IMG/VR virus record: IMGVR_UViG_3300033120_000611
DNA from: a virus
Taxonomy: Duplodnaviria > Heunggongvirae > Uroviricota > Caudoviricetes
Length of the DNA stretch: 64,000 nucleotides
Reading direction: 5' to 3' (one strand)
The notes under the pieces were generated by a model. The model made no database searches and had not been told where the DNA came from. It saw only the letters and a program-made list of their open reading frames with translations. Position 1 is the stretch's first letter; each line of letters begins with the position of its first letter. This document shows, in pieces, positions 1,902-31,485 of this stretch. Made by a program: the position numbers and the translations under genes.

Positions 1902-2101
1902 ATTTTACCTTCTTTAATTAAACCCTCTACAATTACTACCGGAATAAGACCAATAGTTATAGTAGTAGTAAATGCTGCTAATCCTCCTACTATACCAATA
2001 CTAGTACCTGGGTATGATATATTTAGGATTAACCCACCAATAAAAAGAGTTAAATCTATAGTTATAGCCATACCATATGCTATTCTAGATGTAATTTTCA
2101 T
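1898..2101 (-). CDS. small hydrophobic membrane peptide (2 predicted TM helices) nested between permease and ATPase genes
   Basis: 67-aa ORF. Its start and stop codons overlap the neighbouring genes (ATGA overlaps) and it is very hydrophobic. Confidence 0.5.
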   Translation of the reverse strand: MKITSRIAYGMAITIDLTLFIGGLILNISYPGTSIGIVGGLAAFTTTITIGLIPVVIVEGLIKEGKI

Positions 2102-4406: not shown

Positions 4407-4413
4407 TTCTTGA

Positions 4414-5370
4414 TTATGATTTATTAAAGAATTTTTGTCTTACCGGTTGACCTACAGGAACCTGGGCATTCAGGTCTACTCCCACTGTAAGTGGAAGATT
4501 ATTAGCATTCATGTAATTCTGAAGTTCTGTAAGACCTGCATCAATATTAGCCTGTTTTTCAACAGCAATACTATCAGTTAAAGTCTTAGATCTCTTCTCG
4601 AATCCATCAATGTAACCTATATATTGAGTGGTCTGCTCTTCGAGTTCTTTAATAGACTGACCATAAGCTCTAGCAGCTTCATTATCTGAATTAATAAAGT
4701 CCTCAGCGCTTTTCAGGCCCTTGAAGATTTCCTTATTTAATTCAAATTCTTTACGCTTACTATCGATCTGGTATGTTAGCCTATCAATTGTAGTAGATGA
4801 AGCCTCAGCTAAATTCTGCATGAGCTCCAAACTTGTGTATGTTCTATCCAGGAGTGGTTTAAGCCTATCCATTCTACCCTTATCAGTCTGAGCCTTTAGA
4901 CCCTCAGTGCCAGCTATACTCTGCTTACCTTGTTTATAGGCAGCAGCTGCTAGTTCCATATGACTTTTATAGGATTCTTTTAAAGTCTCCATCTCTCTTT
5001 CACCTTTTTGCTTCTTGCCTAACAATACATCAATAGATTTATTTAGCTTCCTTAGCTTATTAGTTAGAAAATCAACATATCTATCCATAACTGATAGGGG
5101 ATCCATCTTGATCATGAGGTTACGTAACTTTACCTGTAAGGTAATGATAGAACTCCAAACCATAAATGGATTAAGTATAGCATAGAGAGTAATAAAAGCC
5201 AGAGGTATACCAAATCCAAGGAAGATATAAATATTCTTCATAGCTTCTATGATCTCTGGTAGAAATGCATTCACCACCTTAGCACCTATAAATAAGGTAC
5301 CTAAGATTATAGCAACAGCTATAACCTTTTGCATTGGTGTGCTCGGTTTAGTTATATCAGATGCTTGCAT
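4414..5370 (-). CDS. membrane-anchored coiled-coil protein (N-terminal TM hairpin plus long heptad-rich region)
   Basis: 318 aa. The first ~70 aa are hydrophobic (two TM segments); the rest is charged with coiled-coil character (K/E/Q-rich). No enzyme motifs. Confidence 0.55.
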   Translation of the reverse strand: MQASDITKPSTPMQKVIAVAIILGTLFIGAKVVNAFLPEIIEAMKNIYIFLGFGIPLAFITLYAILNPFMVWSSIITLQVKLRNLMIKMDPLSVMDRYVDFLTNKLRKLNKSIDVLLGKKQKGEREMETLKESYKSHMELAAAAYKQGKQSIAGTEGLKAQTDKGRMDRLKPLLDRTYTSLELMQNLAEASSTTIDRLTYQIDSKRKEFELNKEIFKGLKSAEDFINSDNEAARAYGQSIKELEEQTTQYIGYIDGFEKRSKTLTDSIAVEKQANIDAGLTELQNYMNANNLPLTVGVDLNAQVPVGQPVRQKFFNKS

Positions 5371-5995
5371 TGGCTTTGAGATATTGGTTTATCTTTGCCA
5401 CTCTATCTGCTATAATAGACCGGACATTAGTGAGGGAATACTGGAATGCTTGTTTCTCAACATTAATAGCATTAGTTGAGTCAAACACCTCTTTAGTAAG
5501 AGTTTGTGATTGCTGATTGTTAGCTTCTATCTCAGCTGCTAATTGCTGGTTCCTCTTAGCAAGATCAGCTATTTTCTGATTCTTAGCATCTATATCAGAT
5601 GCTATTACTGCAGCTTCCTCCTGGTTAAAGGATTGTTCTTCCTCAGCGAGTTTAGAGAGATAGTAGTTAGCTGATTGCTCGAGATCAGCAGGCTTAACTC
5701 CCATAGACTTAGCAGCAGAATAAGCTAGCTCATATTTAGCTTGCTCACCTATTGCCTTACCATCCATATCAAGTAAAGTCTTATTGAATTCGAAAAAATC
5801 AAAGCCTGGTTGATTATTCTTCTCCAAAACTTCAGAGAGATAATCATCATAGTTGCGACTCGCATTACCTACCGGTAGCTTACCTAACGGTTGTAATGGA
5901 GCTACAATAGTAGCAGCTGGCTTAGCTGTTGGTGAAGTTACTTCCACCTCCTCATCAGGCTTGAGGAATCCTATTTTCTGTAGGAAATTTGCCAT
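5357..5995 (-). CDS. soluble coiled-coil protein, PspA/IM30-like architecture (weak)
   Basis: 212 aa with a long Q/E/A-rich heptad region (AEIEANNQQSQTL...) and the conserved upstream motif before its ATG. Confidence 0.5.
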   Translation of the reverse strand: MANFLQKIGFLKPDEEVEVTSPTAKPAATIVAPLQPLGKLPVGNASRNYDDYLSEVLEKNNQPGFDFFEFNKTLLDMDGKAIGEQAKYELAYSAAKSMGVKPADLEQSANYYLSKLAEEEQSFNQEEAAVIASDIDAKNQKIADLAKRNQQLAAEIEANNQQSQTLTKEVFDSTNAINVEKQAFQYSLTNVRSIIADRVAKINQYLKANASI

Positions 5996-6024
5996 TGTTG
6001 TAGTTTGTTGTTGGTTAAAAAATA

Positions 6025-6405
6025 TTAGAATGTCTGAACTGGCTGCTTTGGAACTCTAGGGAATCTCTTCTCTACTTCAGTTACAAATAGCTTACCTGTA
6101 GACACCTCAGAATTTTCCGGAATATCTATGGTCATAATAGTCTTACCATTACGAGCATTATCCAGGGCTATCCTACGGCCTTCCTTTTTATCAAATTTGT
6201 CTGGAGCAACTGGAGACTGAATGTCTACTATAGCTCCTGTATGAGTAAACCGGAGTAGACCAGTCTTACCTTTAAAGCATATAGCTTGCCCTACATGAAT
6301 TTGATTCCCCTTAACAAGACCTGCCAGGGTTAGACGATTTTTGTTTTTCTTCGTCACATCAGGATAGTAGAAAAACACTACGTCCTGATCTATTTTTTCC
6401 GCCAT
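6025..6405 (-). CDS. hypothetical protein, first gene of the tRNA-flanked operon
   Basis: 126-aa ORF preceded by an A-rich upstream motif. Confidence 0.5.
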   Translation of the reverse strand: MAEKIDQDVVFFYYPDVTKKNKNRLTLAGLVKGNQIHVGQAICFKGKTGLLRFTHTGAIVDIQSPVAPDKFDKKEGRRIALDNARNGKTIMTIDIPENSEVSTGKLFVTEVEKRFPRVPKQPVQTF

Positions 6406-6492
6406 GATTGTTGGTTTTAAAACAGTTAATAAAAATTCTTCCGCTCCATTAATCGGATTTGGACATGTTCCAACCCCTTAATATTGCGATTG

Positions 6493-6564
6493 TGACCCTA
6501 CCAGGAATCGAACCTAGATCCACAGATTAGAAATCTGTTGCTCTATCCGTTGAGCTATAAGGCC
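6493..6564 (-). tRNA. tRNA-Arg (anticodon TCT)
   Basis: Reverse complement has a GGCCTTA acceptor stem, TAGCTCAACGGATAGAGC D-arm, anticodon stem ACAGA/TCTGT with loop ttTCTaa, and a GGTTCGATTCC T-arm. Confidence 0.8.
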
Positions 6565-6629
6565 TGGATGGGAGGAGTGGGTTCTAGCCACTACAGCTCC
6601 CACATGACTAGACTTCGTTGGCACTACAG

Positions 6630-6815
6630 TCAAGTCTTTTTTGTTGGTTTACTTCTTTTAGGAGATGGTGACCCACTTTCAACACCTCGATAATTTCCAA
6701 AAGGACTTCCTTCTACAAAGCTTTCACTTACCCTACCTTGTCTATAAGAAAAATCAGCTTCTCTAGGCTGTCCATATGACTTGCCTATATGTCTGCTGCC
6801 TACGGTTGTAAACAT
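6630..6815 (-). CDS. small basic protein (61 aa, SPSPKRSKPTKKT tail)
   Basis: Internal ATG of the 86-aa track ORF. The conserved upstream motif (AATCTCAAAACAAATAGTT-ATG) sits exactly before this ATG and not before the upstream one. Confidence 0.45.
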   Translation of the reverse strand: MFTTVGSRHIGKSYGQPREADFSYRQGRVSESFVEGSPFGNYRGVESGSPSPKRSKPTKKT

Positions 6816-7001
6816 AACTATTTGTTTTGAGATTAAAGAATATTTTTCAAGAAAAAGAGCGGGTCTTCCCACTTTTATGATAAGACCCAACCCTTTTTTA
6901 ACCCACGAATGTGTCGATCAGTGCTAATATGAAGCAGATCACAACAAATATGATTATAGAGTAGTATGGATCACAATTTTTTAGTTGCATGAGTCAAAAT
7001 T

Positions 7002-7247
7002 TTATGGTAAATTACCGGCGATGAATCTTGCATCATCACCAAAGTATCTAATTGTCGGTGTATTAGGAATTATCATTCCAGGAAACATTACACTGATATA
7101 ATGCTTTTCCTCTTCATTCACTATTTCAACTTCTCCTACATAGTAAATTGAATATTTACTGTCATCCTTGAATGGAGAGGAATGACCAGGACTCCATTGC
7201 ACTTGGTACAACTTACCTGAGTTAGGATCTTTACTTGTTATTAACAT
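7002..7247 (-). CDS. hypothetical small protein
   Basis: 81-aa ORF in the minus-strand gene array. Confidence 0.4.
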   Translation of the reverse strand: MLITSKDPNSGKLYQVQWSPGHSSPFKDDSKYSIYYVGEVEIVNEEEKHYISVMFPGMIIPNTPTIRYFGDDARFIAGNLP

Positions 7248-7331
7248 GATTGATGATTATACGAGATAGAGAAAAAAAGACTAGAGAAGCTTCTCAGCCT
7301 CTCTAGTCCAACTAGGTTGTAAGAAAATGAA

Positions 7332-7589
7332 TCAGACCTCCAAGGTACCAGCTACAGATTCTATAATAGGGGTCAAACCCACTCCATGCAAAGAGAAGCC
7401 CACAAACTCAGCCATGAAACCTACTATTGTAGATTCAGCATGTACGTGACTTAGAGCTACACCTAACGCGGCTATTGTCAAACCTACGATCACACGATGT
7501 CTTTTCGAGTGATCCTTACCAAATAGGTGATTGCTTACATGCTTAGGTAAGTTTAATGCATTAGCAATTGCTGTTAAGAATTTTTTCAT
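7332..7589 (-). CDS. hypothetical small protein with a hydrophobic core (possible membrane protein)
   Basis: 85-aa ORF containing GLTIAALGVALS and VGFMAEFVGFSL hydrophobic segments. Confidence 0.45.
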   Translation of the reverse strand: MKKFLTAIANALNLPKHVSNHLFGKDHSKRHRVIVGLTIAALGVALSHVHAESTIVGFMAEFVGFSLHGVGLTPIIESVAGTLEV

Positions 7590-7638
7590 AACAAACTAGT
7601 TTATGATGAACAATAAAAACAGCCGGAAGCCGGATTGA

Positions 7639-7803
7639 TCAATCAATCTGGCGAATTTGGGAGAATGGAATCTCCTTCACTCCATCTTTGGTCGAGTGAG
7701 CCCTCACTAAGTTTTTGTGATGATCGAACTCTATTCTTGTTACTTCTGTGAGAGATAGCTCATCAATAGCATTGCCTGTTGGTGAATAAGTAATGGTCTT
7801 CAT
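7639..7803 (-). CDS. small hypothetical protein (54 aa), not in the ORF track
   Basis: I translated it by hand: MKTITYSPTGNAIDELSLTEVTRIEFDHHKNLVRAHSTKDGVKEIPFSQIRQID. It is preceded by a perfect copy of the upstream motif TTTTTTAACCACAAAAACAATTTTAAA-ATG. Confidence 0.45.
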   Translation of the reverse strand: MKTITYSPTGNAIDELSLTEVTRIEFDHHKNLVRAHSTKDGVKEIPFSQIRQID

Positions 7804-7935
7804 TTTAAAATTGTTTTTGTGGTTAAAAAATAAAAGTGATGTATTTGGGTTCGACCCACAACCTTATTTCAGTTGATAATCAAAAAAGGAAAGCCTATAT
7901 TGCTATAGACTTTCCAATTATTAAGCACGGTCAGC

Positions 7936-8304
7936 TTATTTAGCGCCCAGCTCTTCCTTGAACTCTTCTTCGAGCTCATGGAGTGCTTCCTGCGCATCTT
8001 CCTGGTCATTGTCACCAGAGTCAGAGATATCTGTATCCGCATGCTCCTGGTCGAGGGCCGGTGTAGGTTTGCCTTCATTCACCCATGCGTCATATGACTC
8101 AGCGAAGCGGTTGTCTCCATTACCTTTTGTCCAGGCCTGGTAGTCAGCTTCTACAGCTGCATCTTCAGACTCTTTCTCAGAGTACGGGATCATATCCATT
8201 GATACCAAAGCCCTGCCTTCAGCGAGGAGTTCAGTCTTGAGTAATGCGCCTGCTGCGAGTATGGCGGCTGTCCTTGTTGTGTTTTTTTGCGTGATCTTTT
8301 TCAT
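7936..8304 (-). CDS. hypothetical acidic protein, paralog A of a tandem pair
   Basis: 122 aa. Shares N-terminal MKIT-R/KT-AAGAL-TE--AEG-AL and the internal motif DKPTPALD-EHA with the downstream gene. Upstream motif present. Confidence 0.6.
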   Translation of the reverse strand: MKKITQKNTTRTAAILAAGALLKTELLAEGRALVSMDMIPYSEKESEDAAVEADYQAWTKGNGDNRFAESYDAWVNEGKPTPALDQEHADTDISDSGDNDQEDAQEALHELEEEFKEELGAK

Positions 8305-8375
8305 TGCAAATTTTGTTGAAGATTAAAAAATAAAAAATTGTGAAAATACTTTGTCTCGTTCTCTAGGTCAGATAC

Positions 8376-8663
8376 TTAGGCCAGTTCACCCACTTCGATG
8401 TTGGCATGTTCCGCATCCAAAGCTGGAGTTGGTTTATCCTGTGACATCCAGTGATTAAAGGCTTGTACGAAGCCTTCTGCTTCTCCTTCTGATTGGCCGG
8501 CTGCCCATGCACCATGGGATTTTTTCCATGCTTCTTCAGTCAGATCGATCAGATCTTTTGGTACGCCTCCATTGTTATGAAGAGCTTTACCCTCAGCCAT
8601 GATCTCTGTCATAAACAGTGCTCCTGCAGCTAGCTGACTTGCTGTCCTTTTTGTAATTTTCAT
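8376..8663 (-). CDS. hypothetical protein, paralog B of the tandem pair
   Basis: 95 aa sharing the same motifs as 7936-8304. Upstream motif TTTTTTTAACCATAAAACAAATCGTA-ATG. Confidence 0.6.
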   Translation of the reverse strand: MKITKRTASQLAAGALFMTEIMAEGKALHNNGGVPKDLIDLTEEAWKKSHGAWAAGQSEGEAEGFVQAFNHWMSQDKPTPALDAEHANIEVGELA

Positions 8664-8709
8664 TACGATTTGTTTTATGGTTAAAAAAATAAAAACGATT
8701 AAGAGTGAA

Positions 8710-8970
8710 TTACTTCACTTTGTGGTCTATCTCCACCTCTTTGATCTCTTCACTAGAGTTGATACCATCATATCTTACGATATAATCGTGATCACCACAG
8801 CCACAGAATGAGACAGCCGGAGTATCTATCACTATAGCTTGTTTGCTTAGCTTAGTCTCTATTACATCTCCGGGATGATATGAGGCGACTTTAGGTTTAG
8901 CACTTGAACATGCTGCGAAAGAAAGAACACATAGGGCGAGGACTGTGAATCTGAGAAATTTGCTTTTCAT
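8710..8970 (-). CDS. small lipoprotein
   Basis: Signal peptide with a lipobox-like LSFAAC followed by Ser (MKSKFLRFTVLALCVLSFAACSS). 86 aa. Confidence 0.55.
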   Translation of the reverse strand: MKSKFLRFTVLALCVLSFAACSSAKPKVASYHPGDVIETKLSKQAIVIDTPAVSFCGCGDHDYIVRYDGINSSEEIKEVEIDHKVK

Positions 8971-9093
8971 GGCAATTTTGTTTTTTTAGTTAATAAATGA
9001 AATAGGGATGTTTATTACCTATAATCAAGGGCCGCTATCCCTCATGCATACACTAACTATCAATACAGAATCATTAAGTATACGACTGTTAAC

Positions 9094-9381
9094 CTACTTG
9101 TAAATGGATGTCGGGTAGACCCTCAAGGCCATCTTAAGCGAGTCAAGTGTCAGTGAGTCATAAGATACATAGTTGTTGATATCAACTGAAAAAGTACGAT
9201 GTAATCTTGTACCCTCTTTGTAAAATGTGACTATATGTATTTCAGGGTTTCCTATGTCTATTGCTAAATCCTCGGGAGCCGCATAGTCTAGGAAAAATGA
9301 TCCTATACCTAATACGAGGATTAGGAATAGTCCAAGGAACTTACCCTGATTTGGTTCTATTTTAGGGAATCTACTTATCAT
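9094..9381 (-). CDS. small membrane protein (N-terminal TM anchor)
   Basis: 95 aa; FLGLFLILVLGIGSFF is a hydrophobic helix. Overlaps the upstream gene by 4 nt. Confidence 0.45.
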   Translation of the reverse strand: MISRFPKIEPNQGKFLGLFLILVLGIGSFFLDYAAPEDLAIDIGNPEIHIVTFYKEGTRLHRTFSVDINNYVSYDSLTLDSLKMALRVYPTSIYK

Positions 9382-9773
9382 ATTAGTGGTTCGTTTTTAA
9401 GTGTGACAGCAATACCATATGCAAAAGCCAGAATTACTGCTACCATAGTATTTAATATCCATCCCATTTCATATGATTGTAGTATCGTAGCTTCAAAATA
9501 TTCCGGGAAGAAGTAAGTAGCTCCTACGAATATAATGGGAAAGAAATGTAACACCATAGCCCAGGCTGCACCCTTACGATATATCCTGGCTGGTACGAGC
9601 TGAGCATAACCAATAATATATATAAGACCTATAGTGATAAGGAATGCAATATCTATATACAATCCTTCCTTATAAGATTCCCACATAGTTGGTTTCTCAT
9701 TCGTAGCCATAGCTGCAAGGGGCATTATCTGACTTGATACGAGAATTACAAAAAAAGTAAAGAGTTTGTTCAT
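9378..9773 (-). CDS. integral membrane protein (about 4 TM helices)
   Basis: 131 aa with four hydrophobic stretches. Upstream motif present. Confidence 0.5.
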   Translation of the reverse strand: MNKLFTFFVILVSSQIMPLAAMATNEKPTMWESYKEGLYIDIAFLITIGLIYIIGYAQLVPARIYRKGAAWAMVLHFFPIIFVGATYFFPEYFEATILQSYEMGWILNTMVAVILAFAYGIAVTLKNEPLI

Positions 9774-10141
9774 GACGATTTTTTTAGTGGTAAATAAAAA
9801 TCACTCCCTCAAAGATTTAACTTTGTACGATGTAGCCGTACCACTTTCGTAGACGGGAGTGATTAAACTGTATAAGAAGAGTAAACCAATTAGGTACATG
9901 TACTAACAACTCTTAGGCCTAGGGCTATGTTGAAAGCTATCCTCTCCAGTAGGCGCGTAGTTCTTGGCAACCGCAACCATCATGTTTGTGTAGGCCTGTC
10001 GCACCGGCTATCCGGTAGGCCTTACATAAGTAGGTGTACAACGATGAGACATGGTCGTACCTCCCCCACTTGATCAACTTCCCCAACAAACTTGTAATCC
10101 CTACAAGAAACAAATGGGAATGAATATAATTTGTTATTATT

Positions 10142-10555
10142 TTACTCTACGCCAGTAATCTCATTCTGTTCAGCATCTGGAATGTTGGCTGCTTCAATGT
10201 TACTCTCGCTTAAGTAATGCACTGCATCACTAAGAGTATCACTTGACGTTAAATATTTCCGGAATTGATCTATAGTATAAGTACGCGGCATAGGTAGGCC
10301 CAACCTTTCGTGGTCTGATATCTCATCAAGCTTATTGATGGTGAGCTGGAGTTTGAAGAATGTTACATTATTGACTACAACTAAGACTGGCCTGTCCCAA
10401 AAGGCAAATACTGCTACGGGATTAGTCTTCTGAGTTGATACAATAAGGACATCAGCATTCTCCGGATCATCTACTCTTGGCCTGATAAACCATACCATGT
10501 TGGGATAGATTTTATGTAGGAACCATCCGATCCTTTCGAGTTGTTCTGTGTACAT
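10142..10555 (-). CDS. hypothetical protein
   Basis: 137-aa ORF. Confidence 0.45.
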   Translation of the reverse strand: MYTEQLERIGWFLHKIYPNMVWFIRPRVDDPENADVLIVSTQKTNPVAVFAFWDRPVLVVVNNVTFFKLQLTINKLDEISDHERLGLPMPRTYTIDQFRKYLTSSDTLSDAVHYLSESNIEAANIPDAEQNEITGVE

Positions 10556-10566
10556 TTTATGTCAGT

Positions 10567-10893
10567 TTAAAATAATGCTGTTACTTCTAAGTTATGGTAG
10601 GATTTAGCTAGGTGGCTATTAGGATCTGTTATAGCATTATAGTTCTCCATATAATAGCCATGATTAGACCTATTTTTATGAATCTCTTGTGCTGCTTCAC
10701 AGAATTGTGAGTATGAAAGCTCTGTGGGAGTTTCTTCCCATGTTTGGTATGATGGTGGTACAAACTCACCTGGATTGATTAGCCTTTGGAGCTCATTTTC
10801 AATCCAGGTTTTGTCTGTTGATACTACTTCGATAGAGCCAGGAATACCAGTAGGCACGCCTTTAGGCTTTCTCAATATTATGTGAACTCTCAT
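10567..10893 (-). CDS. hypothetical protein
   Basis: 108-aa ORF. Confidence 0.4.
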   Translation of the reverse strand: MRVHIILRKPKGVPTGIPGSIEVVSTDKTWIENELQRLINPGEFVPPSYQTWEETPTELSYSQFCEAAQEIHKNRSNHGYYMENYNAITDPNSHLAKSYHNLEVTALF

Positions 10894-10894
10894 A

Positions 10895-11260
10895 CTAATG
10901 AGGATGAACAGTTATAGATTGATCACCACCAACTACTTCAAAGTCCTGACTATTATTATAGATTGGAGCTATTGGAGAGTTATTCACAGTACGATACGCT
11001 CTATAGGACAAAGTATAATGTCCAGTAGGTACATTTCCCATATCAAATACCCTTGTATCATACACAAGACCATCTTGTTGAGAGATGGTTTGTGACTGAG
11101 AAAGAGTCACTATAGCCTCATAAGGCTGAGTGAACTTGGTTGATGCATCTACTTTGACATATACATGTCCAGTAGAGTTTGAAGTTTTTGAGCATCCTGT
11201 TGCCTGTATAAGACAACCTACGAGGATAATGGCTACTATGAGCCAGATAAATTTTTTCAT
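10895..11260 (-). CDS. lipoprotein
   Basis: Signal peptide with lipobox (MKKFIWLIVAIILVGCLIQATGCSK). 121 aa. Confidence 0.55.
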   Translation of the reverse strand: MKKFIWLIVAIILVGCLIQATGCSKTSNSTGHVYVKVDASTKFTQPYEAIVTLSQSQTISQQDGLVYDTRVFDMGNVPTGHYTLSYRAYRTVNNSPIAPIYNNSQDFEVVGGDQSITVHPH

Positions 11261-11463
11261 CGTCTTGAGTTTTTATTATTAGGAATTAGTTTACAATCTT
11301 TTTGGAGTATTTCATCTTTCTCGATAAGCATTCTCCCTGCTTGTATTAGCCATTTTCCAGCTTCTTCTGGGTCGCCTTCATCTAGCTGTATTCTAGCACG
11401 CTTATATCCTTCAGATAGTATCTCATTAAAGGATAGCTCTCTTAATTCTTTCTGGATATCCAT
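11257..11463 (-). CDS. small hypothetical protein
   Basis: 68 aa; overlaps the downstream gene by 4 nt. Confidence 0.4.
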   Translation of the reverse strand: MDIQKELRELSFNEILSEGYKRARIQLDEGDPEEAGKWLIQAGRMLIEKDEILQKDCKLIPNNKNSRR

Positions 11464-11473
11464 ATGCTAGAAT

Positions 11474-11689
11474 TTAATCGGTCATTGAATCACCTATACC
11501 TTTATACAAAGTAACAGCATCAATAGGACCTACTACCATAACTGAATCTTCAGCTATAACTACATCAGTTTGATCAGCTATAGATAATAACTGATTAATG
11601 GTAGATGCTAGTGTAGTCATCTTATCTACAGCCTCTTGACTAGTGTTTGGTATAGTATCAAGGACATATTTGATCTTTGGAGTTGACAT
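11474..11689 (-). CDS. small hypothetical protein
   Basis: I trimmed the start to the internal ATG (MSTPKIKYV...) that follows the upstream motif and avoids a 50-nt overlap with 11700-11966. Confidence 0.4.
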   Translation of the reverse strand: MSTPKIKYVLDTIPNTSQEAVDKMTTLASTINQLLSIADQTDVVIAEDSVMVVGPIDAVTLYKGIGDSMTD

Positions 11690-11699
11690 ATAATAGAGT

Positions 11700-11966
11700 T
11701 TAGATTTGTTGAAATCCTTCTGAGCTAAGTCTAACCTTAAGCTCTCCATTTGATTGTCCTATCAGTGACACACGTTCTCTTTGATCTACCCAGCTTTCAG
11801 CCTGTTGTATAAGATCATTAATAACATGTATAGCATCAGCTTCAGTAGCAGATTTCTCTATTGAAAAGTTAGCCGCTCCAGTATGACTCAGCTGTACTTT
11901 AATAGGTTCACCAAAAATTACCTGAATTAAAAAGGGATAACCCTTATACTGAATAGTCTTTTTCAT
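11700..11966 (-). CDS. hypothetical protein
   Basis: 88 aa. Upstream motif TTAACTCAAAACAAAACAAAG-ATG. Confidence 0.5.
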   Translation of the reverse strand: MKKTIQYKGYPFLIQVIFGEPIKVQLSHTGAANFSIEKSATEADAIHVINDLIQQAESWVDQRERVSLIGQSNGELKVRLSSEGFQQI

Positions 11967-12460
11967 CTTTGTTTTGTTTTGAGTTAAATTTTATGCCCTC
12001 TGCACTCTATGTAGCCTGTGGATTACTCCTGGAATTTTATTCCTCGCTACATAGCCTACCCTTGGGAAGCTAGATAACTCCAGTAAGTTCAATGATACGC
12101 AATTGCTACATTGACTATTTAATCACACTTGCAAGCGATTAGTGATCTGGTTTATTAACTAGGAGGTTTCTAAGCCTCTAGGTTGTGGTGCATTACATTG
12201 TGTGGTAGGATCGTCCTACATCTTCCGTCATCATCAAGTGGTGCCTTTTGCAATTACGTATATTGGAATTCTAATCGGTTTCCATCTAAAATTCCTTGCA
12301 GTTACACTCTAACCTTCGACTTCATGAGACAGCAGCTCTATTCTTGAGCTACACACAATACGATTAACTTATGCCTAAGTCTAATCGATATTTAAAAAGT
12401 ATTTGAGTACCCCGGCGAAGAAAGCGTAAACTCCGCCAGGGATTGAAACTCAAAACATCT

Positions 12461-12832
12461 TTATATTTGAACAGGTTTATATCCTTTCTTAGCCCAGTGA
12501 TCTATTAGAGCAAAGTATGGCTTCAGATAGTATTGAGCATCTTTTACGTGCCTTATCTGATCATCTTCAGATTCATATCCAAGGCCTATTACTTGTACAG
12601 CCCATAGAGTACATTTTACATTAGACCAACCAGTAGTATAGTGAGAATTAGGCGTAGCTATAGCAGCTCCTATTGTATCAAACCAATTCGCACCAAGCTC
12701 ACTTACTGTTGGAGTAGCATATGATGTTTCATGGACTTGTTTACCCCAGAATGCTGCAGCTTCCCTATCTAACTCATGTAGAGGAATAGGATGATCTACA
12801 CTATTTGTGATTTGAAATGAATTAAATGACAT
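12461..12832 (-). CDS. hypothetical protein
   Basis: 123 aa. Upstream motif TTAACTCAAAACAAAATTGCT-ATG. Confidence 0.5.
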   Translation of the reverse strand: MSFNSFQITNSVDHPIPLHELDREAAAFWGKQVHETSYATPTVSELGANWFDTIGAAIATPNSHYTTGWSNVKCTLWAVQVIGLGYESEDDQIRHVKDAQYYLKPYFALIDHWAKKGYKPVQI

Positions 12833-12954
12833 AGCAATTTTGTTTTGAGTTAATTAAAATAGTAAACACCCGGGGATATGCTGCCCCTACAGCCATGGTT
12901 AGCTGGTGTTTTGAGTCTATAAATAAAAGAACAACAGAGCAAGAACGTTAGTCC

Positions 12955-13137
12955 TTAGCCATTGCTGCAAGTAGCACGGCATGCAGGACGATTGTCGAGG
13001 CAGCAGTTAGATACAGGCTTTTTAGGCGTCATATCCTGACATGCAGCACCACAACCACCGGCAAAAGCGAATTGGCCACCAGAGATAGGAGCAGCAGAGT
13101 TGATCTTTCCCATCAGGTAATTTACGAGTGAGCGCAT
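12955..13137 (-). CDS. Cys-rich small peptide with a double-glycine-type leader (bacteriocin/microcin-like precursor architecture)
   Basis: 60 aa: a leader MRSLVNYLMGKINSAAPISGG, then a core QFAFAGGCGAACQDMTPKKPVSNCCLDNRPACRATCSNG with 6 Cys. Upstream motif present. Confidence 0.4.
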   Translation of the reverse strand: MRSLVNYLMGKINSAAPISGGQFAFAGGCGAACQDMTPKKPVSNCCLDNRPACRATCSNG

Positions 13138-13646
13138 AGCAATTTGATTTTATGTGATAAAAAAATGAAAACAAGTCTTATTGCTGACAATACGTTATCA
13201 GCCGGTACGAGATAGTTATTAGTAATATCCACTCTCATGTATGTCGTATTTGTGAGGCCCCATATCTTAGGATCTGGTTGTTCACCAAATTCTTCGATGT
13301 ATATATCTGTGGTATGATCGTAGGAGTCTACAGAGGCTCCATGCGTACGATCTGGCGAATGATTAATCATCCTACCAGCATACTCAGCACAGAAATTAGT
13401 ATAGTCCACTGTATAGAGAATGTGTTGATGCCAAACCTGGTCAATCTTATCAGAGGGAGCTACTTTACCATATTCGATAGCTAAATACATGAACTTCTTG
13501 TACTCATCTATTATATCTAAAGTCTCCTGCATAGTCCAGCCATTAGCTATAGCTAGTTTCTCTTCAAATCTTTTTCCGGGATGTACATCATACCCTGCAT
13601 CAAAGCTATAAGCCTTAATGTTCTCATATAATGTCAGATTTTTCAT
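13122..13646 (-). CDS. hypothetical protein
   Basis: 174-aa ORF with a WHQHIL motif. No confident family. Confidence 0.45.
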   Translation of the reverse strand: MKNLTLYENIKAYSFDAGYDVHPGKRFEEKLAIANGWTMQETLDIIDEYKKFMYLAIEYGKVAPSDKIDQVWHQHILYTVDYTNFCAEYAGRMINHSPDRTHGASVDSYDHTTDIYIEEFGEQPDPKIWGLTNTTYMRVDITNNYLVPADNVLSAIRLVFIFLSHKIKLLCAHS

Positions 13647-14050
13647 GGCTGCTCGTAATCTCTTAGTAGTTCGAATTCAGCATAGTCTTTGAAAGCTGCA
13701 CCAGGTATGATAGGCTTAAGAGCCACATACATCTTACAGATATCCACGCCATTTTCGTAAAAGGTTTGTTCGAGCTTATTACCGAGGTGTATACAAATCA
13801 ACTCACATGATGTCATCTCATCCAGTCCATGTTTCATGACATTATTGATGATCTTATTATCTATGAGGAATCCCTGGTCATTGAGTTTATTGAGACATGT
13901 AATCTCAACAGTATATTCGTACTGAGAGTGACCTATATCCTTGCACTGATTAGGCGCTTGCAGATCAGTTTCAATAGTACCGAATCTTTTCATCACAAAT
14001 TTCTCAGAGACTGGTGTCCTAGAGATTTTATTATTGAAATGAGTATTCAT
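13643..14050 (-). CDS. hypothetical protein
   Basis: 135-aa ORF with a 4-nt overlap to the next gene. Confidence 0.45.
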   Translation of the reverse strand: MNTHFNNKISRTPVSEKFVMKRFGTIETDLQAPNQCKDIGHSQYEYTVEITCLNKLNDQGFLIDNKIINNVMKHGLDEMTSCELICIHLGNKLEQTFYENGVDICKMYVALKPIIPGAAFKDYAEFELLRDYEQP

Positions 14051-14056
14051 ATACCT

Positions 14057-14275
14057 TTACTTTTTGAGTTTAGGAATTGCTTTGGCCCGGTTGAGTTTCT
14101 TATTCCTCTTGCGTACCTCACGATACTGCTCTATAGAGCTACAGTGATACTTCTGCATCAGTCGCTTCATAGTTTTGGAATAGCCATAAGCTTCTTTGAA
14201 AAGCTTGCCCTTGGACTTCTTAGGGACTTTTTCATCAGATGTTGATTTCTCAACTACTTCATCAGGAGTATTCAT
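14057..14275 (-). CDS. small highly basic protein (possible nucleic-acid-binding)
   Basis: 72 aa, K/R-rich (KKSKGKLFKEAYGYSKTMKRLMQKY...RKRNKKLNRAKAIPKLKK). Confidence 0.4.
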   Translation of the reverse strand: MNTPDEVVEKSTSDEKVPKKSKGKLFKEAYGYSKTMKRLMQKYHCSSIEQYREVRKRNKKLNRAKAIPKLKK

Positions 14276-14302
14276 CTTTGATTTTTATGATTGGTTATTA
14301 AA

Positions 14303-14680
14303 TTATTTGAAGAGATCTGTGATATCGATGGTATTCATAACATTAGAAAGTTTAAACACATACTGATGCTCACCAGTTAAAACCGATTTAGCTTCAATAG
14401 CTAATATTCTAAAACCCATTGATAGTATAAGCTTAAGCTCATCCTTCTTGATCCAGTCTGATATCTCCTTGATAGACTTAAAGGCAGATAGATGTAATCC
14501 AGGTTGGAAATCATCCCCAATACCTTTATCTTTCCATGGAACAGGAAATCCAGTCTTGTGTCTATGAATCATGTCTTGTAACTTAGCAACATTTCTAATT
14601 TTACTATTTCCACATACTTGAGAATGGAATAAACCATACCCATCATCTGGATGTTGTATACGTATCATTACAGTTTCCAT
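14303..14680 (-). CDS. hypothetical protein, tandem paralog 1
   Basis: 125 aa. Begins M-x-x-x-IRI-HP-DG-G-F and ends IDIT-LF, matching the adjacent gene. Confidence 0.5.
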   Translation of the reverse strand: METVMIRIQHPDDGYGLFHSQVCGNSKIRNVAKLQDMIHRHKTGFPVPWKDKGIGDDFQPGLHLSAFKSIKEISDWIKKDELKLILSMGFRILAIEAKSVLTGEHQYVFKLSNVMNTIDITDLFK

Positions 14681-14683
14681 ATA

Positions 14684-15055
14684 CTAAGTAATAAATTCAT
14701 TTGTAATGTCGATCTTACTTAGAATATCATCTTTCCGGAATGCTACTTGCTGCTGACCTATAATGGCATTATCCACAGATATAGAATATATCTTGAAACC
14801 TCTATCCACTATCGCCTTAAAGCCATTAGGATAGAATCCCTTGAATTGTTCCACATCTTTATAGGCACAATAATGATCATCAGTGCAACCTGGACAGTCC
14901 TCAACAAGATTTAACTTATTGGGAAGAGCATACCCATCTAAAGCTTTACTAAAATCATTTTGAGCAATAGCATCAAAAATGGAAAAACCATATGTAGAAT
15001 TGAACACCCCTTGTCCGTCCTCAGGATGCTCAATTCTTATTAGACCTTGCTCCAT
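14684..15055 (-). CDS. hypothetical protein, tandem paralog 2
   Basis: 123 aa. Same N- and C-terminal signatures as 14303-14680 (MEQGLIRIEHPEDGQGVF...KIDITNEF). Confidence 0.5.
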   Translation of the reverse strand: MEQGLIRIEHPEDGQGVFNSTYGFSIFDAIAQNDFSKALDGYALPNKLNLVEDCPGCTDDHYCAYKDVEQFKGFYPNGFKAIVDRGFKIYSISVDNAIIGQQQVAFRKDDILSKIDITNEFIT

Positions 15056-15057
15056 AG

Positions 15058-15429
15058 CTACTGATTATCGTTTATTATAATAGTTGCTAGACTTGTATCA
15101 TCATTCCACCTACATGATCCTACTAAACGATCACCATCTAGTACCCACATAGTATCCATATAAATGGATACTTCATAGCTAACAGGATGAGCCGTATTAT
15201 GTTTGTATGGTGGATAAATATGAGCATAGTATCCATGTTCGTTCTGATATGTCTCATCATTGGCTTCCTTTACAGAAACTCCACAAGATACAAGATACAT
15301 AGCATATGTATGTCTCTTATTTACCTCATGAATGCCTTCAAATGATACATCATCCCTATGATCGTATGCTATTGCTAGAGAGAATACCGCTATTGCGATA
15401 ATTACTCCCCAAAAGATTTTTGCTTTCAT
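15058..15429 (-). CDS. secreted or membrane-anchored protein (N-terminal signal peptide)
   Basis: 123 aa; MKAKIFWGVIIAIAVFSLAIAYD is a signal-peptide-like N-terminus. Confidence 0.5.
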   Translation of the reverse strand: MKAKIFWGVIIAIAVFSLAIAYDHRDDVSFEGIHEVNKRHTYAMYLVSCGVSVKEANDETYQNEHGYYAHIYPPYKHNTAHPVSYEVSIYMDTMWVLDGDRLVGSCRWNDDTSLATIIINDNQ

Positions 15430-15455
15430 TGCTGCTTGTTTTTTGAGTTGATTAA

Positions 15456-15725
15456 TTATTCCCTTAGTCCTAAATAGTGAAATGGATCTTGTCCGTAGTC
15501 TTCATGCTCATTATCCGGCCCATTATCATCATCCGGAAATGCCTTATCCCACTCCTCATCTGTTATTCCGGTGAGAATGAATTCTCTTTCACCAGCAGTC
15601 AGATTAGGGAAGATTTGTTGTATGTTCTCATTACCTTTGAGATATCTATCCCACTGCTCCTGAGTTATATCGAGTTCCAGAGATCTAGTTATATTAGAAA
15701 TCTGTGATGTACGTGTGATTGTCAT
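15456..15725 (-). CDS. small acidic hypothetical protein
   Basis: 89-aa ORF. Confidence 0.4.
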   Translation of the reverse strand: MTITRTSQISNITRSLELDITQEQWDRYLKGNENIQQIFPNLTAGEREFILTGITDEEWDKAFPDDDNGPDNEHEDYGQDPFHYLGLRE

Positions 15726-15736
15726 TATGCTATAAT

Positions 15737-15949
15737 TTAGTCAGTGAAATGATCCTGGATAAATCCTCTGAAGTAAGCCTTAAACTCTTCTGGGAGTTCA
15801 GATGCTTCTAAATGAGATAACACAATGAATTGAGGAAACTCTGGATGATTCTCAGCTGCTCTGGTATATCCAAAGTGTGTGAGATAGTCCTTGATATTCT
15901 CCTCTGTCAGATGAGGATGCTCTTGTTGAGCTATTAGTAGTGTACTCAT
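15737..15949 (-). CDS. small hypothetical protein
   Basis: 70-aa ORF. Confidence 0.4.
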   Translation of the reverse strand: MSTLLIAQQEHPHLTEENIKDYLTHFGYTRAAENHPEFPQFIVLSHLEASELPEEFKAYFRGFIQDHFTD

Positions 15950-15950
15950 T

Positions 15951-16187
15951 TTAGGGTATCTTTGTCCATTTCTTAACTTCTCTTGCTACAGCAAATATCA
16001 AAGCAAAGATTACGAATGTAAGGGCCGGTTCGTCACCCATTACTATTTGTACCATACTAGATAGTATAATAAGAATAACGAGTGAGCTCAACATCAGAGC
16101 AAATGATGAGATAAAATTAATTACCTCTTTTATAGTGAATGTTCGCATTATGCTATAGTTTAGAGTTTTGATTGGCAATAAGTACAC
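15951..16187 (-). CDS. small membrane protein
   Basis: 78 aa with two hydrophobic helices. Confidence 0.4.
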   Translation of the reverse strand: MYLLPIKTLNYSIMRTFTIKEVINFISSFALMLSSLVILIILSSMVQIVMGDEPALTFVIFALIFAVAREVKKWTKIP

Positions 16188-16417
16188 TTAGGAGCTGGTT
16201 GATCCGGTGCTCCACATCTTTTACAGTCTATCAGGTTCGCCTGAGTCTTGTTCTTACCATTAGAAGGAGAATAAAACACATCACCAATCAGATAAGTTAG
16301 GATAAGGAGTAGAATACTGGGAAGAATAGTTGACAGTGTAATAGTTTCCATAATGCTATAAGTATTAGTTTGGTTTTGAGTAATTTTAAACACATCAGCT
16401 ATCTCCGCTTTTCTCAT
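16160..16417 (-). CDS. small membrane protein with a C-terminal CxxC...CxxC zinc ribbon
   Basis: 85 aa with a TM helix (LSTILPSILLLILTYLIG) and CKRCGAPDQPAPKCTYCQ. Upstream motif present. Confidence 0.45.
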   Translation of the reverse strand: MRKAEIADVFKITQNQTNTYSIMETITLSTILPSILLLILTYLIGDVFYSPSNGKNKTQANLIDCKRCGAPDQPAPKCTYCQSKL

Positions 16418-16757
16418 CTATATCATGTGGTACAATCTAACACATTAATAATCAATTTTTTGAACAAAACATTTAAAACTTGGAGAGAATTAACCCTCCA
16501 AGCCTAAATTAGTTAGCATTGTTCCACCATTGATCTGCATCAATGTCACGGATGACTACTATTCTGTTCATAATGAATTGATTTATAGTGAGATGATTAA
16601 ATACGAATAGAAAGATAGGAAGGACGAGAGCTTTGAAGCCTGGTCCTGTCCTACCCTATTGCCAAGCGGAGCAATATTGTTTGTCTCCATCGTGTGTGAG
16701 TGTGAGACTAACCTGTTGATTAACAGGCTAATCTCATGACACACATATTAGGAAAAC

Positions 16758-17093
16758 TTAATTCTCTTTAGATAGTCTTGTGAGCATTTCTTCCATAGTC
16801 TCCTCTGTACCATCTTCTCTCTTGAATGTAGGATTGGCTGCAGGCTTCTGGCTATTCATCTGTGCCTTGTACACTATACCACTAGCTATTACTAACAGCT
16901 TAGTAGCAAAGCCTGCTCCCTGTATCTCCCCATCAGTGAGAGTATCATCATCCTGGATGATAGATGCTAAGGCAGCTTTGGAATGTGCTATGATACTCTC
17001 CATGCTCATTGTGTCCAGTAAAGCCATAAGCTTTGGATCTACAGTATGAGGAAGAAGGGATACGATTATTGCTTTTGCGAATTGTTCATGCAT
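16758..17093 (-). CDS. hypothetical protein
   Basis: 111-aa ORF with upstream motif; flanked by about 330-bp noncoding gaps on both sides. Confidence 0.45.
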   Translation of the reverse strand: MHEQFAKAIIVSLLPHTVDPKLMALLDTMSMESIIAHSKAALASIIQDDDTLTDGEIQGAGFATKLLVIASGIVYKAQMNSQKPAANPTFKREDGTEETMEEMLTRLSKEN

Positions 17094-17432
17094 GGCTAAT
17101 ATGTTTTGAGTGTGACCTTAGTTATAACTAAACGCCTTGGGCTTAACACAGTTTATACTCTCCCAAGAGAGTTGAAGATAGGTTAGATAACAGAGACCAC
17201 ATCAGTGGTGCTTTAGCTCTGGTCATTACTGACGAAAGCCAGACTACAAAGATGTATGGACCACAAGCACAGTGTTTCATATCTTTTTGTCTCTATTACC
17301 CAACCATTAGTTCTTCATGTCCAACATGTCAGCCTGAGCCGGATGATCTATCCAGGCCCGGCCAATCATGTCTTAAGCAGCAGTGTATTATAGATTATAG
17401 GACACACGCTAAAGGGGACTAGCCCCTTGGGC

Positions 17433-17776: not shown

Positions 17777-17891
17777 TGGGGATATACCCCGTAGCAAGAT
17801 TTGACGGGGGTAGCAATGAGGAACAGGTTCTATATACCACACGCATGGGGGTATTTTGCTAATAGATAATTTGGACCGGGGTATTGTATAT
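17777..17891. promoter_or_regulatory. divergent switch region with repeated GGGGTAT-type elements (putative operator or iteron sites)
   Basis: Palindrome GGGGATATACCCC (17777-17789), then CGGGGGTAGCAAT, TGGGGGTATTTTGC and CGGGGTATTGTAT, within 115 bp. The region lies between the last minus-strand gene and the first plus-strand genes. Confidence 0.45.
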
Positions 17892-18045
17892 CAGAAGGAA
17901 ATGATTATGTTTGTATAAAATTACAACATGGCTGAACTAAAACATGATTACTTCCTTATAGAGGGAGTTAAGATAGAGATCTACCCGGGTAAGATTCTTA
18001 CTAATCAGGAGGCAGAAATACTTAAAAGATATTTAAAGAAAAATA

Positions 18046-19113: not shown

Positions 19114-19197
19114 GAATACTGGGCCATCTCTGCTAAATATTTAATAACAGTCCAGAGCTGCGAGAGTGTAAGAGGCCCTTCTTTTTAAACCATCAAC

Positions 19198-31428: not shown

Positions 31429-31460
31429 GGCCGGAGGAGTGATAACCTCCGGTCTATTTA
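31429..31460 (+). terminator. hairpin terminator/attenuator after the capsid gene
   Basis: GGCCGGAGG-agtgataa-CCTCCGGTC followed by TATTTA. Confidence 0.45.
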
Positions 31461-31485
31461 AACCAACCAACAAAATCAAAAACAT

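Follow-up and report, generated by a model that had tools for sequence, protein, structure and literature searches.

How the genes on one arm of a phage genome are found, by a polymerase that must choose them and by ribosomes that appear to make no use of Shine-Dalgarno (SD) sites, is the question raised by the virus record IMGVR_UViG_3300033120_000611, of which a stretch of 64,000 nt (the window) was analysed. The window comes from a crAss-like phage genome: the genes from 18046 onwards lie on the plus strand and include those for the large terminase, the portal and a major capsid protein with a Crass_capsid domain, and a CrAss_Ring_1 tail protein is encoded at 46655-47548. The genes from 17846 down to 1 on the minus strand are mostly small ORFans, and the two blocks are referred to here as the plus arm (capsid-side) and the minus arm (early-side). 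The crAss-like phages rank with the most abundant viruses that infect Bacteroidota, and one of them, phi14:2, has been studied by experiment. In phi14:2 the arm opposite the capsid arm is early and is read by an RNA polymerase (RNAP) injected with the virion, whereas middle and late genes are read by the host RNAP from extended host-type promoters (Drobysheva et al., bioRxiv 10.1101/2020.03.07.982082). The window resembles phi14:2 in having two divergent arms, host-type extended promoters on the capsid-side arm and, on the opposite arm, the small and replication genes that are early in phi14:2, and by this analogy the minus arm would be the early class. An earlier note on this DNA had described an A/C-rich motif just upstream of minus-arm start codons and had suggested that it might be a promoter or a translational enhancer. 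The motif is real, specific, conserved and composite, and the view of it as a single element has to be replaced by one in which the TTAAC..AAAAC part behaves as a leader and only the T-run upstream of it is a candidate promoter. The explanation favoured here, to which a probability of about 0.5 is given, is that the motif is a two-module expression cassette heading early-side units, in which an SD-free leader would be joined to a phage-specific site for the mRNA 5' end.

The reality of the motif was assessed with a position weight matrix (PWM) for a 20-mer derived from ten seed copies, with dinucleotide shuffles and the reversed matrix as controls. Twelve distinct sites in the window scored at least 14 bits, against 0.39 +/- 0.69 expected from 100 dinucleotide shuffles, and the reversed matrix gave none. 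Random positions, whether between or within genes, do not have the motif as often, an outcome that by the earlier note would have made a specific promoter role unlikely. All 12 sites are in the sense orientation for their own arm, with an ATG 4-29 nt after the end of the site, and when seed copies were left out of the matrix 8 of the 10 still ranked among the top 16 of 128,000 positions. Sites outside the seed set (6815, 14275, 19198 and 31486; copies are named by the ATG that follows) likewise lie directly upstream of ATGs. A simple expectation-maximisation motif finder run over all upstream regions found the signal too diluted. On the minus strand there are 13 clear copies and about four weak ones (14050, an upstream open reading frame (uORF) at 12896, 16351 and 17093). 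Loosely defined, the motif stands before 11 of the 19 minus-arm genes with an upstream spacer of 20 nt or more, before 2 of the 22 whose starts abut or overlap, and before one gene each in plus-arm sets of 18 and 31. The bias to the early-side arm is strong (11/19 spaced minus-arm genes versus 1/18 plus-arm genes, Fisher p = 0.001), but the statement that almost every early gene has a copy was too generous. All but one of the sequences originally quoted do stand on the minus strand directly before ATGs (5995, 7803, 8663, 11966, 12832 and 15429), but the one assigned to 16418 had been misplaced and is really at about 16369-16390, within the open reading frame (ORF) 16160-16417 and 30 nt upstream of an in-frame ATG at 16351. 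The 54-aa ORF at 7639-7803, to which the motif had drawn attention, exists. Gene duplication as the source of the similarity between copies was dropped, since only two pairs of paralogs were found among the minus-arm proteins of the window and the likeness is not a by-product of such events.

An alignment of 26 copies from five related phage genomes (the window and four relatives) places the AAC at -18 to -23 from the ATG, with a median of -20. Information peaks at TT/AAC(C/T), the slash marking the junction between the two modules, at T in positions -6 to -4 and at A in positions +7 to +9 and +13 relative to AAC, and conservation ends beyond -9 on the same scale, in agreement with inspection of the full spacers. 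The alignment, together with the comparison to shuffles, upholds the contention that a generic A-rich leader would not have a core of such conservation and such exact placement. The relatives belong to a group of about 16 phages with 68-74% identical terminases in a large protein collection; four of these (L015, L017, L018 and L020) were examined over about 5.6-5.9 kb of minus arm each, and a further genome, L013, is identical to the window and hence uninformative for conservation. The same element stands on the minus arms of the relatives, mostly before non-homologous small genes (e.g. CTATTTATTAACCACTAAAACAATCGTT-ATG and GATTATTAACCATAAAACCAATAACAAA-ATG), and the PWM derived from the window recovers copies in these independent genomes with the ATG 18-21 nt after AAC, five of them in L020. 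Of the 41 minus-arm proteins only seven, six of them within the 5996-17130 interval, could be matched to a homolog in the minus-arm stretches of the four relatives, and one pair is switched in order. Wider searches added little: terminase scans of IMG/VR and of Joint Genome Institute (JGI) metagenomes gave relatives at 34-41% identity only, which is too distant, and one distant terminase relative (L003) uses SD sites; a near-identity search against GenBank phages gave a tRNA match only; an IMG/VR scan with a 174-aa early protein gave no matches and exact look-ups of three window proteins gave no record. An IMG/VR scan for TTAACCAYAAAAC..ATG gave mostly single matches at chance level, the multi-copy loci being in AT-rich genomes or unclassifiable. 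In the literature searched the SD-free, A-rich initiation region is already known, but a TTAAC core at a fixed distance, its class bias in a crAss-like clade and its interchangeability with pistol ribozymes were not found described.

The part of the motif between AAC and ATG has the character of a ribosome-loading region. Four-base SD cores precede 9 of 90 genes in the window, compared with 16% of random 17-mers, and are thus depleted; there are only two 5-mer matches, one in a terminator stem and one in a coding overlap, and G makes up 10% of positions -20 to -1 against 19% overall, which bears out the claim that SD sites are lacking. Among the 19 spaced minus-arm genes A accounts for 58-84% of bases at -14 to -6, with hardly any G between -29 and -4, and the A peak is shared by all other gene classes in the window (50-68% at -13 to -10). 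Ribosomes of Bacteroidia ignore SD sites and favour A at -14 to -11, with positions -12, -13, -6 and -3 significant (Baez et al. 2019, PMC6847099), and their anti-SD is sequestered (PMC7797042). The A-tract of the motif coincides with the A positions preferred in Bacteroidia (-14 to -11 and -6), and this A-rich profile together with the depletion of SD cores supports the SD-independent initiation of Bacteroidota type that had been suggested (PMC6847099). At -3 the 19 genes have 53% G and 32% A and so do not match the A(-3) determinant, on scales that coincide or differ by no more than one base (the base before ATG is -1 here and the first base of the start codon is 0 in PMC6847099). Directly before the ATG, within positions -8 to -1, the motif-bearing genes have a semi-conserved A-T-(T/C)-G-(C/T)-N block (ATTGCT, ATTGCC, ATCGTA, ATCGTC, TTTGCA; in L020 too, AATCGTT), which is not accounted for by the known A(-3) preference. 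The leader resembles the Bacteroidia initiation region in having no SD, in A enrichment at the same positions, in low G and low structure near the start and in that the inferred host is a member of the Bacteroidota; it differs in adding the TTAAC(C/T)(A/C) core at -18 to -23 and the T-run, neither of which is in the described host signal, and in being confined to one gene class.

The TTAAC and A-tract part also occurs in intercistronic spacers of 16-29 nt, once within a coding sequence (14050), before a few late genes and in phi14:2, where genes g002-g004 have a weaker relative, TTAACAAYTAAAAC, about 20 nt before the ATG, including in spacers of 16-18 nt. Because of these occurrences and of the fixed distance to ATG the conserved TTAAC..AAAAC part behaves as a transcribed leader, and since copies are found in tiny spacers or in coding sequence it must work without the upstream module. 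It is very probable that the stretch from AAC to ATG is a standard short SD-free leader. The epsilon enhancer of the T7 gene 10 leader (TTAACTTTA), which boosts initiation in E. coli in company with a strong SD, is likewise a TTAAC-containing, U/A-rich element about 20-25 nt upstream of ATG; the difference is that the leader described here has no SD and that its host ribosome does not use one. Pairing of UUAACCACA with helix 30/31 of 16S rRNA was considered and dropped, as the match was near chance and the strand is buried, no host rRNA sequence having been compared.

Where the mRNA would begin is indicated by other elements that occupy the place of the T-run. A pistol ribozyme (RF02679) lies at 17111-17172 on the minus strand of the window, with a score of 43.6 bits against a gathering threshold of 34.5; it is full-length with no non-canonical pairs flagged, it has the P1, P2 and P3 pairings and the G-U cleavage dinucleotide, and cleavage is predicted to release a 22-nt leader, UCACACUCAAAACAUAUUAGCC-AUG, that parallels AACUCAAAACAAAAUUGCU-AUG of gene 12832. 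A 45-aa ORF at 17143-17280 that overlaps this ribozyme is probably not a gene. A second pistol, in L017 (3556-3611, minus strand, 56.2 bits), has a predicted leader of 19 nt, and both leaders contain the CA-Y-AAAAC sequence of the motif. Behind the L017 pistol stands the ortholog of the motif-bearing gene 12461-12832 (44.5% identity, E = 2e-32), so that ribozyme and T-run module hold the same place before the same gene. The pistol is a ribozyme distinct from the motif, whose upstream module it replaces, and it would give the same kind of short leader. Among 27 viral pistols in which P2 and P3 could be closed by script, 16 would cut 17-46 nt upstream of an ORF, and in other viruses without SD sites the predicted leaders read ^UCACUAAAACAACCAUU-AUG and ^UUCACAUAAAAAAACACAACU-AUG. 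That pistols process mRNAs in the neighbourhood of phage genes is a proposal not yet established (PMC6765202). In L015 it is a tRNA whose 3' end falls 22 nt upstream of an ATG, with TAACCAAA coming next. In a short contig of a more remote lineage (L300, Logan SRR13838937), which encodes a 40% ortholog of 12461-12832, each of the small genes is preceded by a hairpin, then by a sharply conserved GTTACCCATTA and then by a TTAAC-containing or A-rich leader of 18-30 nt; six GT(T/C/A)ACCCA(T/C)TA copies, each after a hairpin and 18-30 nt before an ATG, lie at 2000-3770 on the plus strand. The type of leader is thus retained there although another, promoter-like element takes up the slot upstream of it. 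A related GGTA(A)CCCCATTGCC is found once each in L017 (5235) and L020 (5854), in the divergent region upstream of the first early-side gene, and an IMG/VR scan for GTTACCCATTA..ATG gave single matches only. The sequence TAAATTTG-TATT-AACAACAATTAAAC...ATG, from a Bacteroidia genome, has a canonical box with four bases behind it, and by the spacing rule of PMC6847099 its predicted start is at AAC. From the positions of ribozymes, tRNA, L300 element and host-type promoter we infer that the 5' end of the mRNA would lie at AAC. As the ribozyme and tRNA ends fall at AAC, the T-run is dispensable for the leader.

The upstream module is then a T-run that ends in TT before AAC, with G absent from positions -6 to -1 before AAC in 25 of the 26 copies. 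The -7 box of Bacteroidia sigma-A has near-invariant T-12, A-11, T-8, T-7, T-6 and G-5 (PMC6847099). Of this box (TAnnTTTG) the invariant G is absent from all 26 copies and the TA is not fixed, and a -33 TTTG about 19-21 nt further upstream was not found, there being no conservation beyond -9. The spacers of the plus arm, by comparison, carry Bacteroidota -7 boxes with the invariant G and with (A/C)ACTGA(T/C) upstream (e.g. TACATTTG, TATTTTTG, TATGTTTG and GATCTTTG), and this signal resembles the tripartite host-type middle and late promoters of phi14:2. Plus-arm sites of this kind, in the order (A/C)ACTGA(T/C) or AAGTGA, then TTG, then TAnnTTTG with its G, were seen before 17928, 18763, 24709, 28544, 40662, 43940, 45481 and 58282, with predicted leaders of 9-40 nt. 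The T-run has the same distance to the leader as the plus-arm box, but it never has the G of that box and has no -33 element, and the two arms therefore use different upstream signals. The motif stands at the heads of expression units: abutting genes seldom have it, and a six-gene ABC-transporter operon of host origin has a single copy, before its first gene, where the sequence is remodelled relative to the host's own leader. Copies 6815 and 7803 follow strong terminators, which have T-tails of their own 17-50 nt upstream, and nothing else is conserved in between; a T-run directly after a G+C-rich hairpin is seen at 9773 and arguably at 8970, and there is no hairpin at 5995, 8304, 13137, 14275 or 15429. 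That the T-run is a mere tail of an intrinsic terminator was rejected, only some copies being directly preceded by a hairpin. Three promoter types were also set aside: an N4-type hairpin promoter (5-7 bp stem, 3-nt loop), as the upstream hairpins are unlike one another in sequence, size and distance and about half of the copies have none; a sigma-70 promoter, the scan for which yields fewer sites than shuffles; and an AAC...CGT promoter of extracytoplasmic function (ECF) sigma type, the spacing being 12 rather than 16-17 nt, the CGT present in a minority and the start such that it would fall inside the gene. That the T-run and TT/AAC junction form an early-class promoter or initiator is a tentative proposal, for which the odds, judged from sequence, are a little short of even. 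The compact promoters of phage polymerases, of the phiKZ/AR9 non-canonical and T7 types, are AT-rich, abut or include the start and lie at variable distance from the start codon. They are like the motif in being a short AT-rich single block at the start site, repeated before many early genes, and unlike it in that spacing in the window is fixed to about 2 nt and most of the conserved sequence lies downstream of the proposed start.

The favoured two-module cassette would work as follows. The first module, AAC(C/T)(A/C)-N-AAAAC(A)AA-N5-8-ATG, would be the whole 5' leader, about 20 nt long, G-poor and unstructured, and would act at the RNA level as a translation-initiation region, with an A-tract at about -14 to -6 that suits Bacteroidia ribosomes; a function of this kind accounts for the fixed distance to ATG. 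The second, the T-run ending in TT before AAC, would lie outside the mRNA, in the slot of the -7/-10 element and spacer, and together with the TT/AAC junction would set the mRNA 5' end, most likely as a compact early-class promoter or initiator and not as a host sigma-A promoter; it may be read by a virion RNAP, as on the equivalent arm of phi14:2. Where the promoter is absent, a pistol ribozyme or the processing of a tRNA 3' end in a read-through transcript would give the same short leader. The most far-reaching version, in which the T-run and TT/AAC junction are the early promoter of the injected virion RNAP, GTTACCCATTA fills the same slot elsewhere and leaders of about 20 nt are made interchangeably by promoter, pistol or tRNA, is unlikely as a whole. 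Were it true, selection would have acted to put early mRNA 5' ends about 20 nt upstream of the start codon, SD-blind Bacteroidia ribosomes would load best on short A-rich leaders, and pistol ribozymes would have a concrete biological role. A repeated, class-specific element that is conserved in the clade, and whose junction coincides with the 5' ends set by ribozyme and tRNA, is in any event a concrete candidate sequence for early-gene recognition, and a pistol at the position of the motif before an ortholog suggests a definite job for these ribozymes. As an SD-free initiation signal that is both compact and portable, the leader module could aid gene calling, both in the choice of starts and in the detection of small ORFs, and the design of expression in Bacteroidota. 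If its role as a leader alone holds, it is a well-defined but modest extension of the known Bacteroidia initiation signals.

A number of observations weigh against this explanation, and chiefly against its promoter half. The information in the T-run is low, about 0.6-1.1 bits per position; there is little or no room for a separate promoter in spacers of 26-29 nt (14275, 15429) or at the copy within coding sequence; in some copies, such as 9773, the T-run also serves as the tail of a terminator; no copy precedes gene 17846, with which the minus arm begins; and a few plus-arm genes (31486, 19198) have the leader. In phi14:2, TTAAC-type leaders are found in gaps of 16-18 nt, and the early 5' ends mapped by primer extension had 'no detectable common upstream motifs' (bioRxiv 10.1101/2020.03.07.982082), and the T-run/TTAAC junction is a candidate here for something that was not found there. 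The two pistols share a CACA stem strand, and their likeness to the motif is in part forced by the fold; the placing of the 5' end at AAC is itself deduced from the positions of such elements. Nor did a polymerase gene come to light: D[FY]DxD was not found in any long plus-strand ORF of the window, and the 2217-aa ORF at 47549-54202 (plus strand), which follows the CrAss_Ring_1 gene, gave nothing in Pfam or PDB, its one match being to a PHROG 'virion structural protein', for which reasons it was dropped as a candidate virion polymerase. Three other very large plus-strand ORFs (54746-58216, 58282-59997 and 59997 to the end, the last of at least 1334 aa and running off the end of the window) likewise have no Pfam or PDB match and no DFDxD, and a virion polymerase has accordingly not been identified within the window. 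The points that concern the promoter (T-run information, short spacers, the motif-less first gene and the negative result in phi14:2) leave the leader untouched.

Several of the same observations could be taken to mean that the promoters are distant, that their transcripts contain the T-run along with the rest of the block, and that the block is purely a translation signal, with SD-independent ribosome loading through binding of U-rich and A-rich single-stranded RNA by bS1 and the 30S platform, with TTAAC as a specific enhancer and with the hairpins as stabilisers or leaky terminators. The strictly fixed distance to ATG, the invariable sense orientation with an ATG always following, the copies in spacers of 16-29 nt and within coding sequence, the two late-side genes with a copy (in one case just behind the terminator of the capsid gene), the TTAAC-type leaders of phi14:2 and L300 that are independent of upstream sequence, the fit of the A-tract to the Bacteroidia initiation motif and a tRNA-Arg in the arm that has no copy of its own are all as such a signal would have them. 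It does not account for the strong arm bias, given that the highly expressed capsid and portal genes have neither T-run nor TTAAC, nor for the single copy at the head of the host-derived operon, nor for copies that sit after strong terminators, and a ribozyme or tRNA end would be expected upstream of the T-run and not, as is found, at AAC; overall, a pure translation signal is rather unlikely. The coincidence of ribozyme and tRNA ends with AAC, the information maximum exactly at the TT/AAC junction and the occurrence in short intercistronic spacers would also suit a processing site, at which long early transcripts are cut at UU/AAC by a host or phage endoribonuclease to give monocistronic mRNAs with a leader of 20 nt. 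As no nuclease of such specificity could be cited and no nuclease gene was recognised among the ORFs screened, and as the terminators upstream of several copies mean that a continuous precursor is not assured, cleavage of this kind is held to be improbable.

Use of the host RNAP through a weak variant of the sigma-A box would require TATTTTTT to be read as TAnnTTTG with T for G, AACC as a 4-nt spacer and the next A as the start. Several copies do read TATTTTTT-AACC-A (5995, 7803, 8304 and 8663) and Chitinophagaceae loci have boxes with A for G (TACATTTAC), but the near-invariant G-5, which the six plus-arm -7 boxes inspected by eye all have (17928, 18763, 28544, 43940, 45481 and 58282), is missing from 26 of 26 copies, conservation does not extend to the TA at -12/-11, a -33 element is lacking and the sigma-70-type scan fell below shuffle level, so that a host promoter has a decidedly poor chance of being correct. 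A last alternative turns on the mosaic gene content and order of the arm (the few homologs among minus-arm proteins and the one switched pair) and on the ORFan nature of its genes, and sees in the motif a 30-nt junction repeat kept mainly as homology for the shuffling of small ORFans between related phages, with expression a secondary role. Cassettes of promoter and stem-loop between small early ORFs, for which a role in recombination has been proposed, are known from T4-type phages; the sequence of hairpin, early signal and small ORFan, the hyper-variability of the early region and the mosaicism among relatives are alike, but T4 uses host sigma-70 early promoters and SD sites. Shuffling leaves the fixed ATG distance, the A-tract match and the arm bias unexplained and is compatible with the two-module cassette rather than an alternative to it, and as a sufficient explanation it is very improbable.

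Table 1. Copies of the motif and related elements in the window. The slash marks the module junction and the caret the predicted cut; distances are those of AAC (or its equivalent) from ATG and scores are those of the PWM.
Feature	Position	Strand	Sequence	Distance	Score (bits)	Remarks
Copy before ATG 5995	5996..6027	-	TAATATTTTTT/AACCAACAACAAACTACAACA-ATG	-21	22.0	Head of six-gene ABC-transporter operon of host origin, sole copy there
Copy before ATG 6405	6406..6438	-	GAATTTTTATT/AACTGTTTTAAAACCAACAATC-ATG	-22		86 nt downstream of tRNA-Arg
Copy before ATG 6815	6816..6845	-	ATATTCTTT/AATCTCAAAACAAATAGTT-ATG	-19 (AAC-equivalent)	14.8	Non-seed; 17 nt after terminator-like hairpin (6873-6858)
Copy before 54-aa ORF 7639-7803	7804..7835	-	TTTTATTTTTT/AACCACAAAAACAATTTTAAA-ATG	-21	22.8	About 50 nt after strong terminator 7915-7888
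Copy before ATG 8304	8305..8335	-	TTTTATTTTTT/AATCTTCAACAAAATTTGCA-ATG	-20	17.9	
Copy before ATG 8663	8664..8694	-	TTTTATTTTTTT/AACCATAAAACAAATCGTA-ATG	-19	22.0	Gene paralogous to 7936-8304
Copy before ATG 8970	8971..9002	-	TTTCATTTATT/AACTAAAAAAACAAAATTGCC-ATG	-21	20.9	Hairpin upstream
Copy before ATG 9773	9774..9802	-	GATTTTTATTT/ACCACTAAAAAAATCGTC-ATG	-18	18.6	Directly after long hairpin (-25 kcal/mol)
Copy before ATG 11966	11967..11996	-	CATAAAATTT/AACTCAAAACAAAACAAAG-ATG	-19	17.3	At end of 494-nt non-coding gap
Copy before ATG 12832	12833..12862	-	CTATTTTAATT/AACTCAAAACAAAATTGCT-ATG	-19	20.6	L017 ortholog preceded by pistol ribozyme instead
Tandem weaker copy before uORF ATG 12896	12897..12930	-	TTTTATTTATA/GACTCAAAACACCAGCTAACC-ATG	-21	12.5	
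Copy before ATG 13137	13138..13169	-	TTTTCATTTTTTT/ATCACATAAAATCAAATTGCT-ATG	-21	13.2	Overlaps 3' end of ORF 13122-13646
Weak copy before ATG 14050	14051..14078	-	CCTAAACTCAAAAAGTAAAGGTAT-ATG	-20		Embedded in 3' coding end of upstream gene
Copy before ATG 14275	14276..14302	-	taaTTTAAT/AACCAATCATAAAAATCAAAG-ATG	-21		Fills 27-nt intercistronic spacer; leader kept in L020 and L018 orthologs
Copy before ATG 15429	15430..15455	-	taaTTAATC/AACTCAAAAAACAAGCAGCA-ATG	-20	15.9	Fills 26-nt intercistronic spacer
Pistol ribozyme (17111-17172) and released leader	17094..17172	-	GG^UCACA, giving UCACACUCAAAACAUAUUAGCC-AUG			Predicted cut; 22-nt leader before gene 16758-17093
Late-side copy before ATG 31486	31455..31485	+	TATTT/AAACCAACCAACAAAATCAAAAACAT-ATG		14.5	Right after capsid-gene terminator; kept before L018 ortholog
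Short-spaced copy before Cpn10-like gene, ATG 19198	19182..19197	+	TTTTTAAACCATCAAC-ATG		13.9	Kept in L020

A Chitinophagaceae-like bacterium of the Bacteroidota is the probable host, to judge from the ABC operon, the TTTG/TAnnTTTG promoters of the plus arm and the Crassvirales domains. The six genes of the operon (541-5995, minus strand) are colinear with a chromosomal ABC-transporter operon in two Chitinophagaceae genomes (L142 and L143), at 40-73% amino acid identity, and the whole looks like a host-derived auxiliary operon. It encodes an ATPase, a permease, a fusion of substrate-binding and OmpA domains and three other proteins, and the phage version has an extra 67-aa ORF at 1898-2101. 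In L142 and L143 several host genes have a TA(C/T)ATTTAC box, in which A replaces the consensus G, that ends 4-6 nt before the ATG, a placement that would imply leaderless or nearly leaderless host mRNAs. The early-side arm also carries genes for tRNA-Trp (50-121), tRNA-Met (283-358) and tRNA-Arg (6492-6564), all on the minus strand and none with a motif copy of its own; the tRNA-Arg resembles that of the gut crAss-like phage cr126_1 (87% over 58 nt). On the plus arm an IHF/HU-like gene lies at 54202-54624.

Some features of the minus arm and its surroundings were noted in passing. The uORF that starts at ATG 12896 crosses the next motif copy and stops just past the ATG of gene 12461-12832, and it may be a coupling or regulatory leader peptide. 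The early-side stretch 11967-12460 is 494 nt long, has no plausible ORF and gave no Rfam match, and comparable gaps of 1.0-1.3 kb are found in relatives (L017 3542-4575, L018 2875-4147 and L020 4126-5225); in phi14:2 abundant early non-coding RNAs come from long intergenic regions. The divergent region between the arms has repeated boxes of ATACCCC(C)/GGGGGTAT type in all relatives (window 17847-17927, L017 5074-5384, L018 5732-6166 and L020 5703-5938), for which regulator sites, origin sequences and start signals are conceivable roles. A sequence like the motif, TTTT(T)AACACAAAA(A)CC, occurs on the other strand of the early-side arm at the same relative place in L015 (plus strand, 4447) and L018 (plus strand, 4418), with no ATG at the usual distance, and it is possible that this is a start signal for an antisense or non-coding RNA.

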